The translations under genes and the position numbers were made by a program. Positions 1 through 64,000 of a DNA stretch of 64,000 nucleotides are shown here, piece after piece. The notes under the pieces are model-generated. The model made no database searches. It saw only the letters and a list, made by a program, of their open reading frames with translations, and had not been told where the DNA came from. The stretch is from Vicugna vicugna (lineage: Eukaryota): assembly GCA_013265495.1 (NCBI GenBank), contig MU057701.1:248001-312000 (forward strand). The letters run 5' to 3'. Positions within the stretch are counted from its first letter, which is position 1. Every line of letters starts with the position of its first letter.

Positions 1-100
1 CTCAGTTTTTCCATCTGTAAAATGGAGTCAATAGCAGCCCCACAGGAGAGGGTTGTAGTGAGGACAAAATGAGTTAAAACATAAACACTTGATAAGCATG
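1..100 (+). mobile_element. MIR SINE fragment
   Basis: MIR core ctcagtttttccatctgtaaaatgg...gggttgtagtgagga...aatgagttaa. Confidence 0.8.
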
Positions 101-15080: not shown

Positions 15081-17065
15081 TTTTTTTTGAAACAAGGGGA
15101 AGCCTTGTGTACATGCACACGTGTAGGTGCACATCACAAAGAAAGATGTGGGGAGACACAGCAGGCTGCTGACCTTTGCAAAACAACTCTGAAGAGGGAT
15201 TGTTTACTTTTTCTTTTTCACCCTCTTAATGTTCGACTTGTTCCAACAAGCATGGGGGACTTGGTGATTTTGTTTAGACCCATAAGGTAGCCCCAAAAGT
15301 GTGCAGAGGTCAGGGGAGGAGGGAGGAAGGGCAGAGGGCTCCGTCTAGCCCACTTGCCCCTGGAAAATGCTTGTTCAGTATCTCCATGAACATCTTCAGT
15401 CTGGGGTGTGGCCCGCTCGAGCCTCTGCATCTGCCACCTCTGGCCACCCTGACACCAGCCTGTCCTGGTTCTGTTTCCTCTTGCTCACAGACGCTCATGA
15501 TTCTCCATCAACTTAACCACTCACAAAAGAGTAAGACCCCTTGGGTAAAGAGTGGGGGATTTCTGAGTCCCTTAGCAACCTGCCTCCCTGATCCACCACC
15601 TGAGGCCAAGAATCGTCTTGGTGCCTTTCAAGTATTACCTCAGGTGATCCTCCTAAGAGCCTAGGAGATAAGGCCTGTGGTCATCCCCATTCTACAGATG
15701 AGGAGACTGAGGGGGAGTAACTAAGTTGTTCCTACTTAACCTGGCACAGAGTTCACTGTCTTCCGCTGTCCCTGACCAAGCCCCACCTGCCCACCAATCG
15801 CCCTGGAGGCCCCTGGGTCTTCAGGAAGCAGGGGTCCTTACCCAGCACCCCAGCTCCCTGAAGGCAGCAGCTAAGGAGCCGGACAGAGGGGAGAGGTTGG
15901 GGAGAGCTGGTAAGCCGGCTGACTGGTAAACAGGAGGAAGAGCAGCCAGCCCCCAGCTCTTCAGAGGCCTCCCGATTGGAAGCACCGAGACGGACGCTGG
16001 TCTGGCCCAGGCCCTGCTCCCTACCTTGTGCTCCCGACCAGGAGGTCGGGCTGGGCGTGGGAAGGCCAGTGAGATGCTTGGCAGCGGCTGCAGAACAAGA
16101 ATTGGCTCTGGTGGAGACCGCCCCCAACCCCACTCGGGCACTGCAGGAGCTGGGGGCAAGCCTGGTGTGAGGGGGTCAGCCGGCCGGGCAGAGCCCGACC
16201 CCCCAAGCACCCCCTCCACCTGTGTCCACTTCTGCACTGGCCGCTCCCAGACAGCAAGAGAGTGGGGGCTGGGAGAGCTAGATGGGAGATTCTGGAAGGG
16301 AGGACTGGGCGGTCCTCCTGCAGAACTATCCAGGGTGCCCTGCCTCCCACCCTGTAAGGCAACTTCTCCGAGCGGGGAGGGGAAGCCAGGCAGGAGAGGG
16401 TCTCGACTTTTCTGGCAGTTTCTCTTGTTCCATCTTCTCTTCCTTCTATCACACTGAGTGAGGGGATTAGAATCACGTTGCCAACTGTGTGCATATTTGA
16501 TGTGTAACTTAGGAGGGATTCACCATAATTGTGTGCTTGAGAGAGGGAAAGACAGACAGACAGACACCATGGGGGCAGATTTCATCCTGACCTACCTGAC
16601 CCGTAGCATCCGCCCCACCTTCAGTCACAGCCCCTCCCCCTATACAGGTCCTTCTCAGCTCCAGAACTTCCCACCCTGGGCAAATACATAGCCTCTTCCT
16701 TGGCCTCGAAGGCCTCCTCCCCATCCCCTTGGGAAACTGTCATTTTTCTAGACTTGGCTCTGCAGCCCCCTTGAGTAAGGGGGTCTCTTGTCCTGCTGGC
16801 CCAGGAATTTCTGCTTGAGTCCTCTTGTCCCTGCGTGGTTACTGATGGTGGCCTCACTCTCATAGGTGTCCAGATGTGGACTGGAAATGATACGGTCACC
16901 TTTGGGCACTTTCCCCTCTGCAGTTCTTCTCTGTGTGTGCCCATCCCCCCCCCCCCCCCGAATCCCCGGACCCCCCGCCCGCCCCTCCCTCCCCCATGGA
17001 TCTGAAGTGCGTGCACGTGGAGCCCACGCACACTGACCACGCTCTTCTCCTCTCGTTCCCTCCAG

Positions 17066-17149
17066 GGATCTATAAAGGCCACTGCTTCCGGATCAATCAC
17101 TTCCCAGAGGACAACGATTATGACCACGACAGCTCGGAGTATCTCCTCC
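17066..17149 (+). CDS. CACNG4: CACNG4 (TARP gamma-4) coding exon 2, 84 nt
   Basis: Pyrimidine tract plus AG at 17064-17065 and GTAAGT donor at 17150. Translates (G)[27 protein letters not shown](R), the gamma-4 first extracellular loop; phase 1/1. Exon 1 lies upstream of the window, so 1-17065 is intron 1. Confidence 0.97.
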
Positions 17150-18326
17150 GTAAGTGTCGAGAATCCCTCCTTCATGTGCCGAGCAGGAGCGGGTGGCGGG
17201 TAGGCGGCTGGAGGAGAGATGGACCCGTGGGAGTGGGTGGGGTGCTGTTCTCTGGGTGCTCCTGTCACTCCCTCTCTGACTCAGAATTGTTAATTCAGAG
17301 GATGGCGTTTTGTTCAAGGCTGGGCATCCCAGTGGAGTTACTTGGCTGATAGGATCATGCCCGGGGAGACTGGGGCCTGGGAAGAGGGGATGAGGCTGGG
17401 GCATCCCAGCTCCCCGGGGCTTCTGGGCATGGCTGTCTTCAGAGGAGTGGTTGCTGCAGCCAGTCCTGGCAAGCAAGTTAGAGACAGGCATGCCCAGTCC
17501 CAGCATCCCTGGGGGCTCTGACACCCCAAGGACACTGCCCTGCCAGCACTGGATCGTCCACCCCTCCCCACACCACCCAGCATTCTCCTCTTAAAAACCC
17601 AGATTAAGTCACACACTGAGGAAGCCCAGTGGGTGCCAGGCAGCCTGTGGAAGAAGGTGAGGGAGGTAGCAGGACCAGCCTTGGACATGGGGGTCCTCAG
17701 TGTCTCCAGCACCAATTGGTCGAGCTGTCACCTCTGCCCGTGAGCTGCCCCTGCCTGGGTCCTGTGGCTGGGCTGGCCCCCAGATGGGAACCCAGAAGTC
17801 ACAGAATATACTGAACCCCAAAGGACGAATAGCACTATGCCCTAAATCCTGATCTCATCCCTGGGCCTGTGGACACCTCCCTGGGAGGAAGGATGGAGCC
17901 ACAGCCCAGGAATGAACCTGGAAATGGAAAAATCAGCACCGTTTTGAAGTCATTTTTCCCTTTTGCATTAGCCAAGACACACGCAGAGCTGCTCCCAGCA
18001 GCTCCCCCAGGGGCTGGGGCCAGCTGCATTTATGGAGAATCGATACCAGCATCCTCAGAGGGAGCACAATCCACTCTGCACCTGCTTATGGATCGTTTTT
18101 TCTAAGAGAAAGGATTTTGGTTGTGAGTCATCTAGTGAAATGAAACAGCGTGTGGTTCCCATGGAGCCTGGGGCAGTGTCAGGATGCTCTGGCCAGGCCC
18201 AGAACCTGAAATAATTTGGCCAGATCTGCCTTCTATCTCTCCTCCCTTACCTTCTCCTCTTCCTCCCACCTGTCCTCTCTTTCTGCTTTCTGGGAGTCAA
18301 TACTAAACCAAGCAAATGTTATTCCA

Positions 18327-22021: not shown

Positions 22022-22162
22022 GCATCGTGCGTGCCTCCAGTGTCTTCCCCATTCTCAGCACCATCCTGCTCCTGCTCGGCGGGCTCTGCATCGGCGCTGG
22101 GAGGTTCTACAGCCGCAAGAACAACATCGTGCTCAGTGCCGGCATCCTCTTTGTGGCTGCAG
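22022..22162 (+). CDS. CACNG4: CACNG4 coding exon 3, 141 nt
   Basis: AG at 22020-22021 and GTGAG donor at 22163. Translates (R)[46 protein letters not shown](G), covering TM2 into TM3, in frame with exons 2 and 4. Confidence 0.97.
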
Positions 22163-39022: not shown

Positions 39023-39257
39023 ATGTCCCAGACCAAAGCACTGAAGGTCCGTGTGACCCTCTTCTGCATCCTGGTGGGTATTGCACTGGCCTTGGTGGCC
39101 GTGGTGACCGACCACTGGGCCGTGCTGAGCCCCCACGTGGAGCACCTCAATGCCACCTGCGAGGCGGCCCACTTTGGCCTCTGGCGGATTTGCACCAAGC
39201 GGATCTTCGTCGGCCACAGCAAGGACAAGAGCTGCGGACCCATCACCCTGCCTGGGG
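39023..39257 (+). CDS. CACNG1: CACNG1 (Cav1.1 gamma-1 subunit) coding exon 1
   Basis: Kozak-like ACCACCATG. Translates MSQTKALKVRVTLFCILVGIALALVAVVTDHWAVLSPHVEHLNATCEAAHFGLWRICTKRIFVGHSKDKSCGPITLPG, with the claudin-family GLW..C motif; GTAACG donor at 39258. Confidence 0.97.
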
Positions 39258-43029: not shown

Positions 43030-43061
<32 letters not shown>

Positions 43062-43098
43062 ATATATATATGACTATATATATATATAGTCATATATA
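43030..43098. repeat. (TA)n microsatellite with GTC/GAC interruptions
   Basis: (TA)14 followed by gtcatatatatatgac(ta)7gtcatatata. Confidence 0.95.
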
Positions 43099-47300: not shown

Positions 47301-47640
47301 TTTGGCCCTTGGTTGACCACATGTCCTGCACCCGCTAAAATACAACTTGAGCTCTGGGCCTCAGTTCCCCTATCTGCCTAATGGGCTCAGTACCCACAGT
47401 GGACTCAAAGCCTCAGCTCCTGGCCTCTTACACAACCCCCTTTCCTACTGAAATTTTGGTGTAAGGGTTAGAGAAAGACATTTGTTTCAGCCCAGAGTCA
47501 GGGTTTGGGGAGCCGAGAACCAACCAGAAGCACCGTTCATGCTCGCTCCAGGGGGATCACACCCACCTTCTCTTGGCCAAGCTCCTGCCCCAGCTGCAGG
47601 CCCTTTCTCTCAATTCATAGGCTGTCTCCCTCCTTTGCAG

Positions 47641-47715
47641 AGAAAAACTGTTCCTACTTCAGGCATTTCAACCCAGGCGAGAGCTCGGAGATCTTTGAAG
47701 TCACCACTCAGAAAG
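47641..47715 (+). CDS. CACNG1: CACNG1 coding exon 2, 75 nt
   Basis: tcctttgcag acceptor and GTGAG donor at 47716. Translates (E)KNCSYFRHFNPGESSEIFEVTTQK(E). Confidence 0.97.
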
Positions 47716-48282
47716 GTGAGCCCGTGGTGGAGAGCAGGGAGGGGGAGGAAAAGTGGCTTCCGTCACACGCTGCTGAGCCAGAAAATCATCTAGCACAAAA
47801 GCCCCAACGTCCTGGCTCTCAGTGACAAGCGGCCCCTCCTGATGCAGAGCCCCGTCACCCTCTGTGCTCTGGAGTCGGCGGCACCCCATCTCCAGGCATC
47901 CCAGCAACCATACATCAGAGCTTGGGCGAGTCTGTAAAAGAGAGGTTTCCTGGTAGGCTCCCAAATGGCAGGAAGCATACATTCTCCCACGGAGCCGAAG
48001 GGAAGCTGCCGTAACAGGAGCTCTGAAACTGCAACAAGGATGCAAGGTCCCTGTGATGGTTTTCAAGGCTGGTGGGTCAGAGTCAGTGGGGCATCTGAAT
48101 CCCTCCCGCACCTATAAATCACTCCCTGAGAACCAGAGGCAGGGACTTGGGCAGATGTGTGAAGGACCACAGGAGGACACGTGCCCTGGGAGCCTCCTGG
48201 GAACCATGGGATTTGGGTGCATCCCCTTGGCCTGAGTACAGCCCGACATCTGCATATGTACAGATGACTGCACATGGCATGG

Positions 48283-48393
48283 GCGTGCACACACGCACAC
48301 GCACACACACGCACACGCACACACACGCACACATACACGCATGCACAAACACACATACACACATACACACACACACAAACACACATGCACATA
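48283..48393. repeat. (CA)n/(CACG)n alternating purine-pyrimidine tract
   Basis: About 110 nt of cacacgcacacgcacacacac... in CACNG1 intron 2. Confidence 0.95.
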
Positions 48394-48866: not shown

Positions 48867-49004
48867 AGTACAGCATCTCGGCAGCCGCCATCGCCATCTT
48901 CAGCCTCGGCTTCGTCATCATGGGAACCATCTGTGTGCTCCTGTCCTTCAGGAAGAAGCGGGATTACCTGCTGAGGCCTGCATCCATGTTCTATGCCTTT
49001 GCAG
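48867..49004 (+). CDS. CACNG1: CACNG1 coding exon 3, 138 nt
   Basis: AG at 48865-48866 and GTACG donor at 49005 (phase 1). Translates (E)YSISAAAIAIFSLGFVIMGTICVLLSFRKKRDYLLRPASMFYAFA(G). Confidence 0.97.
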
Positions 49005-49415
49005 GTACGATGGGGCCCCTGTCCCTATGCCTGGGGTCCCGGGGGATGCTTCGACCCCATTCCCACATCGCCTGGGATTTGGGTTTGGAAATTCCTAGGC
49101 TCCAGCCAGGGGCAAACCTGATCAGGGCTTCAGCCACTGGCCACGTGCCAGGAGTAAGGGCAGATCTTGGCAGTTTGTCCATTTCTTACTAAGACAATCC
49201 TCAAGGCAGTGAGGATGCTAATTAATAACAAAAATTAAAATTAATTTTTAAAATAGTACTAACAAATGAAGGAATGAAAGGCGGTTAAAGGCAAAGGGGT
49301 CACTTTGGCAGATTCTCAACTGGAACTTCAATCTCAGGGCCATTCTCCCCACCCAGAGGCTGGGTCTTGACCTTGACCCGGTGCGGAAGCCCCAGCAGAT
49401 GCAGTGCTGGCTTCA

Positions 49416-49635
49416 CATCTTCGTCTCAGTGGAGGTCATGCGTCAGTCGGTGAAGCGCATGATCGACAGCGAGGACACTGTCTGGATCGAGTACTCTTAC
49501 TCCTGGTCCTTCGCCTGTGCCTGCGCCGCCTTCGTCCTCCTCTTCCTCGGCGGCCTCGCCCTCCTGCTCTTCTCCCTGCCGCGAATGCCCCAGAACCCCT
49601 GGGAGTCCTGCATGGATGCCGAGCCCGAGCACTAG
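49416..49635 (+). CDS. CACNG1: CACNG1 terminal coding exon 4; 5' boundary abnormal (canonical acceptor and first 7 nt missing)
   Basis: Translates IFVSVEVMRQSVKRMIDSEDTVWIEYSYSWSFACACAAFVLLFLGGLALLLFSLPRMPQNPWESCMDAEPEH* with TAG at 49633-49635. The expected G-L-C codons and preceding AG are absent; the only in-frame AG is 49428-49429. Confidence 0.92.
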
Positions 49636-50157: not shown

Positions 50158-50163
50158 AATAAA
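50158..50163 (+). terminator. CACNG1 polyadenylation signal
   Basis: AATAAA about 520 nt after the stop codon, followed by U-rich ttgctttttcctt. Confidence 0.8.
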
Positions 50164-53352: not shown

Positions 53353-53870
53353 TGAGGTAGGAAGCCCCAGAAAAAGACCGGCAGGACCCCCAGGCAGGGC
53401 CACTACTCTCCCACCAGCACCATCCGGTTTCCTGGTCCAGAGGCTTTATCTCACTTTTTGCCTCTGAAATTCTACTGATTCCCTGAGCTCCCTCCTGATT
53501 GGTTATTTCCTTCACTCCTGATTGGTCCATTTTCCTAACTTCTGATTGGTCCATTTGTAGTACTTCATTTGCATGGAGCTCACTCCTGATTGGTTATTTC
53601 TCTCCCTCCTGATTTGTCCATTTCTACAAAGCTTGTTCCTAATTAGTCAACTTCTGTTACACTTTATTTGCATATGATATTGCAAAGTGTAAACTGACAG
53701 CCTATAAAAGCTTGTGTAAACCTACAGACAGGGTCCAGAGCTTGGAGTGTTAACTCCTTTGGGCCTAATGGCGTAGTAAACCTGAGTTCTCCAACTCTCC
53801 GAGTGCTGCTTGGTCTCTTGCCAGGGTCCAGGTTGCTGTCACAACTGAGCTGTAACACCGAGCTGTAACA
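53353..53870 (+). mobile_element. ERV solo LTR with CCAAT/octamer array
   Basis: TG...CA ends; repeated ctgattgg boxes, TATAAAA at 53703-53709, AGTAAA at 53775-53780 and a tgtaaca terminus. Confidence 0.75.
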
Positions 53871-56019
53871 CATTTTTTCTGCAACAATAGTATCAAAATT
53901 TTAAATAGAGACAGCGTCCATATTATGGATTGTTCCTTTTTGTCACTCTCCTGTGGGTCAGCGGGGCAGTGGAAGGTAGCCACGATGATCCCCATTGTAC
54001 AGAAGGAAAGACTGAAGCCCTGAGGAGGGCTTGCTTCCCACAGTCTGGTTAACTGGTGCCCAAGCAGGAAAGAGAACCGAGGCTGCTGGTTTCCCACCTG
54101 TGTAACCAGGGTCCTTTTCAGTCTTCACTAGGGGGACCAAGAGACATCAAACTCTCTCTTTGGCTAACCCATAGTCGGGTCTAACACACAGAACTGTCCA
54201 GGTGGTTGAGTTCTCATTATCCCTCCTTGAGATCAAACATTTCGAGTCTGTGTACCTCCATTCCTCCTGCCTGCCCCAATAAAGAGGGGTTTTAATCACA
54301 TCCTACGTCAGTGTTTCTCCTGCCTACTGATGTGACTTGTTCCATTTTGAGCAACTGTTTTATTTACAGATTCATGTCTAATTTATACCCTGTCTGCTTT
54401 CAGAAAAGATCTGAAGTAGAGACAAGGTATTAATAAATCCATGGTGTGGAACATGTCTGTTAAATCGAGGACTGGCGGGAGGTGAGGATGCAGCTGCCCG
54501 TGGCCTCCTCAAGCCCTCATTTCACGGCTCTAGAGCAGCCACCGGGGCCATCAATTCATCCCCACACCAGGCATTGATCCTGCGCAGCAAAGGAAGTTCA
54601 TTAAGGTAATTGCCTTTACAAAGAACTATACTTTGTCTTCTTCTGACTTTGCTCCAGACAAGAGTTTTTGGCCTGAATGTGAACGCCCTGACCTCATGGA
54701 AATGCTCGTTGATGTGGTTTGATCTGCCTCATCTTGGCCCACAAAGGGATCCTGGTAACCCCGGGGAGAAGTGGAGGATGGGGTGGGGGGTTATCTGCAG
54801 CCACGACCTGCGAGTTCTCAGCTCTGAGCTTGAGGATCCCCAAAACACACGTCTGAGCCATGATTTCAACAGCTAACACCCTTCCTGCCCCCACCTCACC
54901 GCGTTTTAAACAGGGCGCCTTCAGGCAACTGTGCACGTGCTTCAGGGCCTAATGAAGTTAATAGAAACAGGGATACAGTTCACCTAGGAATGTCCAAGAG
55001 GCAGGGGGGTGACAATGTAGAATCCTCTCCATCTAATGGGGAGGAAAATGAGAAAAGGGAAACGCAGCAGCCAAGGCCGGCCCCAGCTCAGTGAGAGGCT
55101 GCCAGCAGTGGTTAAGACGAGGTGATGGGTGAGACCGAAGCCAAGAGGCTGGCCTGCAGGCTCCAGAAACTCAGGTATCAAACTCTCACCAGAGAGATGG
55201 GATCTAGGAGCAGCGAAGAACCATGGCTCCATTGGTTTCACAGGCGTGAAATTGACCTCTGAGGGAGGACACCAGCTACCCTGCTGAAAGATGCTTCTCC
55301 TCCTCCTTCCCGTCTTCAGATAGTTGGGAGATGTCTCGAGGCCAGAAAGAGTGGCCTGTGAAGTGGGGTGAGACCCAGCTCGTCCCTGAGCCCCAGGGGC
55401 CCCCTCCCCCTCCGCCTCAGAATGGCCGAGGCCATGGTTGACACGCCTCCCTCTCGTCATTTCCTGGTTCAAGATCTGCTTCCAACACAGGACAGAAAAA
55501 GCTCCAGGAGGGCAGAGGCTGGCGGGCTCATCCACTGCCACTCTGGAGGCCCCGCGCACAGTAGGCACCTTAAAGGAGGCGGAAAGAAAGGAGGGAGGGG
55601 AAAATAGTGTTTTGCCGCAAGTAATGTAGGTTTGTGAGTGGGGTCAAGGACGAATGGGGCTGCCGATCAGCAGAGTCTTCCGTTTGCATTGACGAGGGTG
55701 CTGTTCCAGGGTTCCCTTTGCTGAGGTCTGCCCTTAGTCACCCTCACCTTCCTGGCCCCACTACGCGCCAGCCTGGGGGTATAAGAGACAGAGCTCCAGG
55801 TCAGGGCAGCTGTGGACCTTCCCTGGGCCTGTTTCCTCACCTGCAAACGTTAACTAGCTCATGTGAGACTGGAGCATGTGTCAGACTACGTCATCGTTAC
55901 GGTCCCTCCAGCTCTACCATTCTCTGGGGCTGTGAAAACCCAGATGCACGATGTGGTCCCAGACCTCAGGAAACATGATGTGCACATTTAAAAAATCACC
56001 ATCAAATGTCCTTGAAACA

Positions 56020-61400: not shown

Positions 61401-62459
61401 TTTCCCCACTAACTTTCACACTAATATTCTTGCAAAAATGCTTCAAAGAGCACCAATGTGGCACAGGAATTAACACCTGAGAATCTTGTTTGCATTTTCC
61501 CACCCATGACAGGCCCCCGGTTACTTCATCAAGAGCAGATGGGCAGCCCAGGGGGTTCTCCACATCCATTTGATTTGTACCTACAGAAGAGTGTTTCTTT
61601 CTGAAATCCAGAGATGATTTATGTCATATTGTATCAACTCAACTCAAAGAAAACAAGACACGTGGCTTAAAAACGGATTCACTGCAACGAATAAGAATAA
61701 TGAATTGTCCTTATGAAAGGCTGGCTGTCCTGTCTTCTTACATTTGCAGACTTTAAGCACAGCATATTCAAGTTAGATTTACAGCGCCACATGCTGGGAT
61801 GTTAAAAGTAAAATAGCCAGGGCACACCAAGCATTCTGTGACCTGCTAAGTGCTTCTCAAAATCACATCGTGGCAGATGCAAATAATTATTTCCCCAACA
61901 GAAATCAAGACCCTGACTCAGGGCGATTTTCTGCACAGCCAGCATTTGGAGGGGAGGGGCGGGGGAAGGTTGAATGAATGCTTGTCATATACCGCCGTGA
62001 AGGGTGTTATTATTGCCACATGATGTAAATGATATAAACTAGGTTTGTGAGTTCTGAAATAAATTCTAGACCACACAAGCCCAGCAGTAACAAGTGACTT
62101 GTTAACGGTAATTGATGATCACTTTTTTTGAAGTTCTTAAGAACTGTGTTGAATGGCAATTTGAGAACGGCTCATTTTCTCACTGACCCCTGAGGATCTT
62201 TAAGCTTTCAGGTAACAACCTGAAGCCTTCAGGCCTTGGGTACTGCTGAAGTTCACAGATTTAAGTAAAGCTGCGAATTTCTGGAAACTAGAGGAGTCAC
62301 AATTTTACAAATTAATATTACGTCCTGTTACTTTAGCTGGTTTTACAGATGAATATTATGAATGAAATCAAAGGGCTGTGCTTAACTTCTGTCAGACCTT
62401 TGATCTTAAAAGTAAAAGCAAGCAGAGGATCGTGGTTCACACATAATAAACACATCTCC

Positions 62460-64000
62460 AAATTATTAAAAAGGCATTTTATTATAAATACATTTTAGTT
62501 GTAGCAGTAAAATACATTTTGTGTTACCATGAATCTTTTAAAACAAAAGAACTTCACTGAGACAATGATCACAATGTAGGAACTGCAGACCCCCAAATTG
62601 AAAACTTGTTCTAAGGAACCAAAGTGGCTAAAGAAATTCCAAAACTAAGTTAAAAAAAAAAAGGAAACGACAGAAAAGGAAGAAAATAAAAACCCTAGAG
62701 AATGGCTTTGGGGTTATTTTATGGTACAAAGTCATTTTTACTTTTAAGGATAAACTCTTAAGGTATTAGAACCTCTCGGACGAGGTATCATTAACTGTAA
62801 GAAATAATAATAATTTTGTTATAATTTTGCCATAACTTATGATTATTACATGACTGTACAACTGGTACTTATAAGAGATGGAAACTGACCATCTCAGTTT
62901 TATATAGCCTCCCTTTGGAAGACTTGCCAAAAGAAGACCCAGTATGAATTTGCTAAGTAATTGATTGTATGAAGTTAGCTGAACAAGTTTAGATAAGAAC
63001 TTGTATTTTTGAAGCATAAAAAAAAAACCCTGTGTCATTAATAACAGGACCCTTTAATAAAATGCAAAACCCATTACCTTTATAATTTAGAGGAGAGGTA
63101 TTTTAATCACCGTATTTACCTAGGATACAACTACTACGTATAACCAGTACCTTCATGGGTTTCAAAGAATCAGGTCGGATGACTGGCACAGAAAGCGGAT
63201 ACAGTACAATGTCATACACTTGGGTTTATAGGAAGCAGGCATGGTCTGGATACGTAAAAATCCAAGACCTTTCCTCTGAATGGGAGGGGGTGCTGAGAAA
63301 CATTCTCAGGTGTAACTGACGCGTCCGTCAGGACCTCAGCCTGGATAAAAGGACCCTCCGACCGACGGAAAGAGACAAGAGGTCTTTGCATCCAAGGCAT
63401 CGTGCAAAGCAAAGTGTGAATAAACAGAAGCTCCCTGTGAGTTGGAACTGGATAAAGTAACCTGTGCTGAACATATAAACGATCCCACCAAAGGTTAGCA
63501 AGCCTTTCAAGGAGGAAGGACTGTGTTTTAAGAATTCCAAAACTGTGCGTTCTACGATGCTTATCATATGCACTACTTCTAAGTCGTTCTATAATCTATC
63601 ACCTTAAAAATATTTTATTTTTCTCTTTCTTGTGTCTCAGTAAATTCAAAGCCAAACTAAAAACCAGAGGCCGAGACCAAAACCCCTCAAGCTGCACTGA
63701 CTCCAGGGGGAATATTAACAACAACGACACTAACACACACATTTTTAAAATATCCAAAGACCTGTAGGTTGATTATATTGTAGGCAGTTTCTTTCTCAAA
63801 AATAACTTGTTCATACATGTGCACCTATGGTTTATGAACAACTCATGCTGTGTAGGTGGTAGATTCCCCTAGACTGTTGCTTTTTCTTTCTTTTTTTTCA
63901 AACATAGTTTTTTTTTGTTTTTTGTGTTTTTTTGAAGATAGCAAAGCAATCAGAGACAATGATCAACTTTCTGCCATATACATCACTTCAGGCTCCCCGA
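62460..64000 (-). other. HELZ: Distal 3' UTR of a convergent minus-strand gene, probably HELZ
   Basis: AT-rich UTR-like sequence with no recognised repeats. Minus-strand AATAAA at 62483-62478 with a GU/U-rich downstream element (tgtgtttattatgtgtg). The gene name rests only on recalled mammalian synteny CACNG4-CACNG1-HELZ; no coding sequence is in the window. Confidence 0.6.

Follow-up and report, generated by a model that had tools for sequence, protein, structure and literature searches.

A CACNG1 exon 4 without its splice acceptor in a vicuña assembly probably reflects a mis-join at a G-run

The CACNG1 gene of a Vicugna vicugna assembly reads as though exon 4 had lost its splice acceptor and first codons, and this is most probably the product of an assembly mis-join, in which about 101 nt of an ordinary four-exon gene were dropped at a run of G. 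The gene lies in the window, by which we mean the whole 64,000-nt stretch of contig MU057701.1 that was analysed. Judged by its sequence it is the CACNG1 orthologue encoding the gamma-1 subunit, and its parts are arranged as follows.

39023 to 39256, + strand: CACNG1 exon 1, coding part (residues 1-78); tblastn against P0001, 100%
47641 to 47715, + strand: CACNG1 exon 2 (residues 79-103); tblastn 100% (47640-47714); its AG ends at 47640, with 14 pyrimidines of 17
48867 to 49004, + strand: CACNG1 exon 3 (residues 104-150); tblastn 100%; donor GT 49005-6, phase 1
49005 to 49415, + strand: remaining part of CACNG1 intron 3; 411 nt, single copy in the assembly
49415 to 49416, + strand: junction, apparently blunt, with about 101 nt missing (G-rich intron end, pyrimidine tract, AG and first 7 nt of exon 4)
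49416 to 49635, + strand: coding remainder of CACNG1 exon 4, intact through the TAG at 49633-5
50158 to 50163, + strand: CACNG1 AATAAA polyadenylation signal

The reference protein used here (P0001) is a camelid gamma-1 of 224 aa (XP_006177484.2 / KAB1266096.1), which matches the gamma-1 subunit of CaV1.1 in PDB 3jbr chain E with E = 2.4e-134. The best matches of the window gene are camelid, and its exons 1 and 4 score 52 and 42.8 bits, respectively, against PF13903 (PMP-22/claudin; cut-off 29.1). When compared with mammalian CACNG1, exons 1-3 and exon 4 from residue 153 onward are identical to the camelid protein; in contrast, the acceptor of exon 4 is missing from the window text together with residues 150-152, and neither an intact exon 4 acceptor nor a full third membrane helix is present in the assembly text. 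Specifically, exon 4 agrees with residues 151-224 of the reference at 73 of 74 positions (tblastn, 49411-49632), the sole mismatch being Cys152, whose codon is cut by the junction. Because the rest of the gene carries no substitution relative to the camelid protein, there is no sign of decay, and with no further coding change a decaying CACNG1 pseudogene is ruled out. An initial annotation of this DNA had exon 3 ending in phase 1 and homology to exon 4 starting abruptly at about 49416 without an acceptor; both observations were borne out, with the exon end at 49004 and the second point confirmed by tblastn against the reference.

The size and nature of the missing piece can be read from a predicted alpaca protein (XP_031541748.1, or P0002; 247 aa). 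This model is faulty, skipping exon 3, and it reads the end of intron 3 as protein through the AG at 49394-5, to which it appears to splice from a cryptic donor in intron 2. One part of that read-through is present in the window.

49396 to 49415, + strand: intron stretch that is coding in XP_031541748.1, just 5′ of the G-rich piece; one codon, at 49407-9, differs (Leu in the window, Lys in the alpaca)

Beyond the match that ends at 49415, the alpaca model has 31 codons and then the full start of exon 4, all absent from the window. If the model is contiguous there, the missing length is 3 × 31 + 8 = about 101 nt and intron 3 would be expected to measure about 505 nt (vs 411 nt), figures that both depend on a single predicted protein, taken from an annotation in which this locus is itself broken. 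The earlier claim that the acceptor and 7 nt had been deleted is correct in that both are absent, but the loss is larger, since about 94 nt of intron 3 are gone too. Among the first 16 missing residues 12 are glycine, which, counted back from the alpaca peptide, gives at least 27 G in 48 nt, a G count reached by no more than 0.17% of the 48-mers in the window. The loss starts at the first base of this G-run and ends 7 nt into exon 4. That the alpaca model reads an intact, G-rich intron end and then the complete start of exon 4 favours a mis-join in the vicuña assembly. The window and the alpaca model are the same over the intron 2 read-through of the latter, whereas several non-coding read-throughs differ from those of a wild-camel model (P0121), a pattern that probably marks a New World camelid. 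As a separate observation, the cryptic sites of the alpaca model, with exon 3 skipped between them, fall at 47716-47810 (intron 2) and 49394-49415 (intron 3), and the model suggests that the assembly behind it is also broken at the CACNG1 locus.

Other origins for the gap were considered and set aside. To judge by the alpaca peptide, similar Ser-Gly codon pairs would flank the loss, one by the left breakpoint and one by the true acceptor, as would suit a microhomology-mediated loss, but joining at these pairs would probably have kept the AG and the first codons, both of which are missing from the window. Likewise, a second copy or displaced fragment is not indicated: intron 3 has a single match in the assembly (2.03 Gb in 12,405 pieces), and the 13 assembly matches of XP_031541748.1 are CACNG1 exons or are paralogue-like or weak. 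The missing piece together with the start of exon 4 occurs in none of these 13 matches, a search that a short piece could escape.

Intact versions of this segment are the rule elsewhere. We fetched 175 gamma-1 proteins, 7 of which do not have the motif that follows the junction in the form searched; of the remaining 168, the full G-L-C-x-x-x-S-V segment is present in 162, while three of the other six have their initial Met directly ahead of the motif and the last three are short isoforms by annotation. Because 162 of 168 proteins have the segment whole, its absence from the window is not a matter of chance. Four camelid accessions (the names include dromedary and wild camel; label n=4 Camelidae) share a 224-aa protein in which the segment is intact, and this too argues for a mis-join. 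XP_072796181.1 belongs with this group under the Camelidae label. We take that label to be the lowest common taxon of the group, which presumably therefore includes a member outside Camelus. Conversely, the peptide that would be read across the junction occurs in none of the 175 fetched proteins, and none of four junction frames was found by exact look-up in a collection of 15 billion proteins, a weak result in that ordinary exon 4 frames are absent from the collection as well; both observations favour the mis-join, the second only slightly. A search for host DNA in metagenome contigs gave 597 pattern matches, none of which was confirmed and none of which came from a relative.

Sequencing runs offer another view of the junction. 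The query was 49330-49580, represented by 24 sampled words, and 24 runs were listed. The best share was 18 of the 24 words (0.75), at which 14 DNA or unlabelled runs with 5 organism labels from 6 studies are tied, rows that may not be independent of one another. Below these stand three RNA runs and one DNA run at 0.42-0.46, three RNA runs at 0.08-0.13 and three runs with no words; there are six RNA-labelled runs in all, and we left the RNA rows of small share and the zero-share rows out of the argument. No listed run has the full word set (0/24). If the words were sampled at random, all of them would miss the junction with a probability of 0.024, and the simplest reading is that no run in the searched set has the join, a set from which the source animal may be absent or of which it may be a part. 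That none of the 24 runs exceeds 18 words hence speaks for a mis-join. Against it, six words are missing where the junction by itself would account for an expected 3.3 (P of six or more = 0.085). When the Leu/Lys difference is counted, the expectation rises to 4.2 (P = 0.23); the measure is a share of words and nothing else, and private SNPs could explain some of the six.

It is also worth considering how this assembly behaves at G and C runs in general. In a sample of 20 stretches of 10 kb (200 kb, from five pieces) there are two runs of N, of 53 and 78 letters, and both adjoin G or C runs, a sample of two that may not represent gaps; one has C runs of 25 and 18 on its two sides, the other a preceding flank with 22 G in 40. 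Positions within 10 nt of a G or C run of at least 6 make up about 1%. With n=2, and with the N runs perhaps not being gaps, this pattern leans at most towards the mis-join. Also in its favour is the documentation of errors and gaps at G-quadruplex (G4) or GC-rich motifs: the portions of two reports available to us describe raised deletion errors at G4 motifs in sequencing (PMC10519405) and the incomplete recovery of GC-rich and G4 sequence by short-read assembly (PMC7757076). A further paper, PMC13202175, whose accessible part deals with other sequencing chemistries, was left out of the argument. The missing piece of CACNG1 resembles the documented assembly gaps in starting with a G-run, and differs from them in that its flanks are joined without N. 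This last feature counts against a mis-join, as N stands at both of the weak spots in the sample. A plausible course of events is that read coverage or quality was lost over the G-run, which is G-quadruplex-like, that the two flanking pieces were then joined without a gap mark, and that the true acceptor of exon 4 was dropped together with the G-run. The gene of the animal would then be spliced normally, giving a 224-aa gamma-1 subunit with four membrane helices.

If the deletion were instead present in the animal, the outcome of splicing from the donor at 49005 would depend on the sites that are left, of which the following bear on the question.

49428 to 49429, + strand: in-frame cryptic AG; 13/17 pyrimidines; would give 217 aa
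49355 to 49356, + strand: competing out-of-frame AG; 12/17 pyrimidines; would give 153 aa
49367 to 49377, + strand: two branch-point-like YTNAY motifs, with A at 49370 and 49376; candidates from a motif scan

Much of what had been proposed about these sites is upheld. A frame test of every AG in intron 3 places those at 49388, 49394, 49397 and 49403 out of phase, as claimed, and, downstream of the final in-frame stop of the intron, leaves no in-frame AG except 49428-9. Its tract, described as good, falls within the range of the four true acceptors in the window (13-16 pyrimidines of 17), and its use would, as predicted, yield 217 aa with seven residues (150-156) removed. The AG at 49355-6 had gone unmentioned; it is out of frame and its tract is nearly equal (12/17 vs 13/17). 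Acceptor choice also depends on the branch point, which has a consensus and a typical spacing. The branch-point-like A nearest to 49428-9 is at 49415, only 14 nt away, and those at 49370 and 49376 would be better placed for the out-of-frame AGs at 49388-49404, the predicted products of which are 292-297 aa long with a foreign tail; retention of the intron would give 211 aa. Since 49355-6 and 49394-5 have a comparable tract or better-placed branch-point-like motifs, the 217-aa form is not assured even if the deletion is real.

Nonetheless, the cryptic acceptor at 49428-9 is plausible, because a bat gene model uses the same position: isoform X2 of Myotis yumanensis (XP_070249736.1, 217 aa) is exactly the product predicted for this AG. 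In Balaenoptera, the X2 models (XP_036694209.1 and XP_007185609.1) are 216 aa long and use a neighbouring acceptor inside exon 4. They differ from the window gene in being alternative isoforms, predicted for genes whose own acceptor is intact. The bat isoform and the two rorqual isoforms lose most of the hydrophobic core of the third helix. The uncharged run of that helix falls from 17 to 10 residues in the short form, and the best 19-residue hydropathy is 0.66 in the bat isoform vs 1.8-1.9 in intact proteins. In Pfam, the 217-aa bat isoform still scores above the claudin cut-off. Models of the 217-aa and 224-aa bat proteins made with AlphaFold (pLDDT 66.5 vs 72.6; pTM 0.58 vs 0.67) have four helices in both cases, with the third spanning 136-161 in the former and 136-168 in the latter, and leave function undecided.

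These observations bear on two further ways of reading the junction. One is that a rare real deletion allele, probably heterozygous, removed the acceptor in the sequenced animal and made gamma-1 hypomorphic or null, the phenotype being mild; we regard this as unlikely, though not negligible. Splicing from 49005 would then be expected to give a mixture of the in-frame product at 49428-9, products of the out-of-frame AGs and intron retention. Consistent with such an allele, the join is clean and without N, an internal acceptor appears in the 217-aa Myotis model and a neighbouring one in the two rorqual models of 216 aa, and an assembler could prefer a heterozygous real deletion when the intact allele is poorly covered. 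Furthermore, G-rich tracts are natural deletion sites too, according to the part of PMC4654259 available to us, which describes C. elegans dog-1 mutants whose deletions have their 3′ edge at the G4 motif and extend upstream to a 5′ edge 50-300 bp from it. The CACNG1 junction is like these deletions in having one edge directly at a G-tract and a size within 50-300 bp, and unlike them in that its tight edge is the 5′ one, with the loss running downstream into exon 4; the signature of a G4 replication stall, a tight 3′ edge with upstream loss, is not seen here. This opposite polarity weighs against the allele only weakly, coming from another organism and a mutant background. Also against it are the absence of the full word set from all 24 listed runs and, within the limits of n=2, the N runs at G/C runs. 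The allele could persist with little effect, because gamma-1 is dispensable for movement in the mouse and tunes inactivation: as far as PMC9184848 was accessible, gamma-1 null mice, which tolerate the loss, move and contract normally, and only inactivation is shifted. A preprint, likewise seen in part, has gamma-1 reducing the current density of the adult form of CaV1.1 (bioRxiv 10.1101/2021.11.10.468074).

The other reading, that the species lost the acceptor for good and that a 217-aa gamma-1 is its normal form, is very improbable indeed. It can draw on the presence of an in-frame AG with a good tract, on the Pfam score of the 217-aa bat isoform and on its four helices in a model of modest confidence. 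However, camelid records hold intact proteins, the alpaca model has an intact intron end, and none of the 14 best DNA or unlabelled runs, which come under five organism labels, goes beyond 18 of 24 words, so the junction is not one found in common in other individuals or relatives. Such a protein would also have its third helix reduced to an uncharged run of 10 residues, and the short forms on record are X2 models only, with X1 or X3 models intact in the two species where these were fetched. Of the possibilities left side by side by the initial annotation, namely a natural allele, a lineage-specific splice shift and an assembly error, the splice shift is therefore contradicted by the four intact camelid accessions and by the alpaca model, and an assembly error is favoured over an allele.

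If the mis-join is the correct explanation, this assembly is able to drop about 100 nt at G-runs with nothing to mark the gap, which can mimic the loss of a splice site or a gene. If the deletion is real, a New World camelid would have a natural loss-of-acceptor allele of CACNG1 in which splicing is forced onto an internal AG, the site of a minor isoform in bat gene models. This would be a natural gamma-1 knock-down or knock-out in a large animal, the third helix of the protein being seven residues shorter, and it would allow voltage-dependent inactivation of CaV1.1, as well as calcium release, to be studied in a species other than the mouse; its interest would be modest, given that in the available part of PMC9184848 mice without gamma-1 show only the inactivation shift. 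A literature search at the level of records, with supplements outside its scope, found no papers on camelid CACNG1, and nothing specific on false gene loss.

Upstream of CACNG1 there are three CACNG4-type exons (at about 17066, 22022 and 26164), which from their translation we take to be CACNG4, downstream of which CACNG1 would be expected. They span 17066-17150, 22022-22162 and 26164-about 26700 on the + strand, have canonical AG acceptors, and appear intact, the last exon being open. Just upstream of a CACNG4 exon, 16940-16995 is C-rich with a 15-C run, and the wild-camel model P0121 is about 10 residues shorter there; this is either a second G/C-run site at which camelid records disagree or a splice in P0121. 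An Rfam scan of window positions 1-48400 gave no matches. Imperfect microsatellites lie within CACNG1, of TA at 43031-43098 (intron 1) and of CA at 48288-48385 (intron 2). The element at about 53355-53871 is presumably, from its appearance, a solo LTR; units of CCAAT-box type recur in it, and it has a short terminal tandem. At 62001-64000 the GC content drops to 0.36, and on grounds of synteny we presume that this may be the 3′ end of the neighbouring HELZ.
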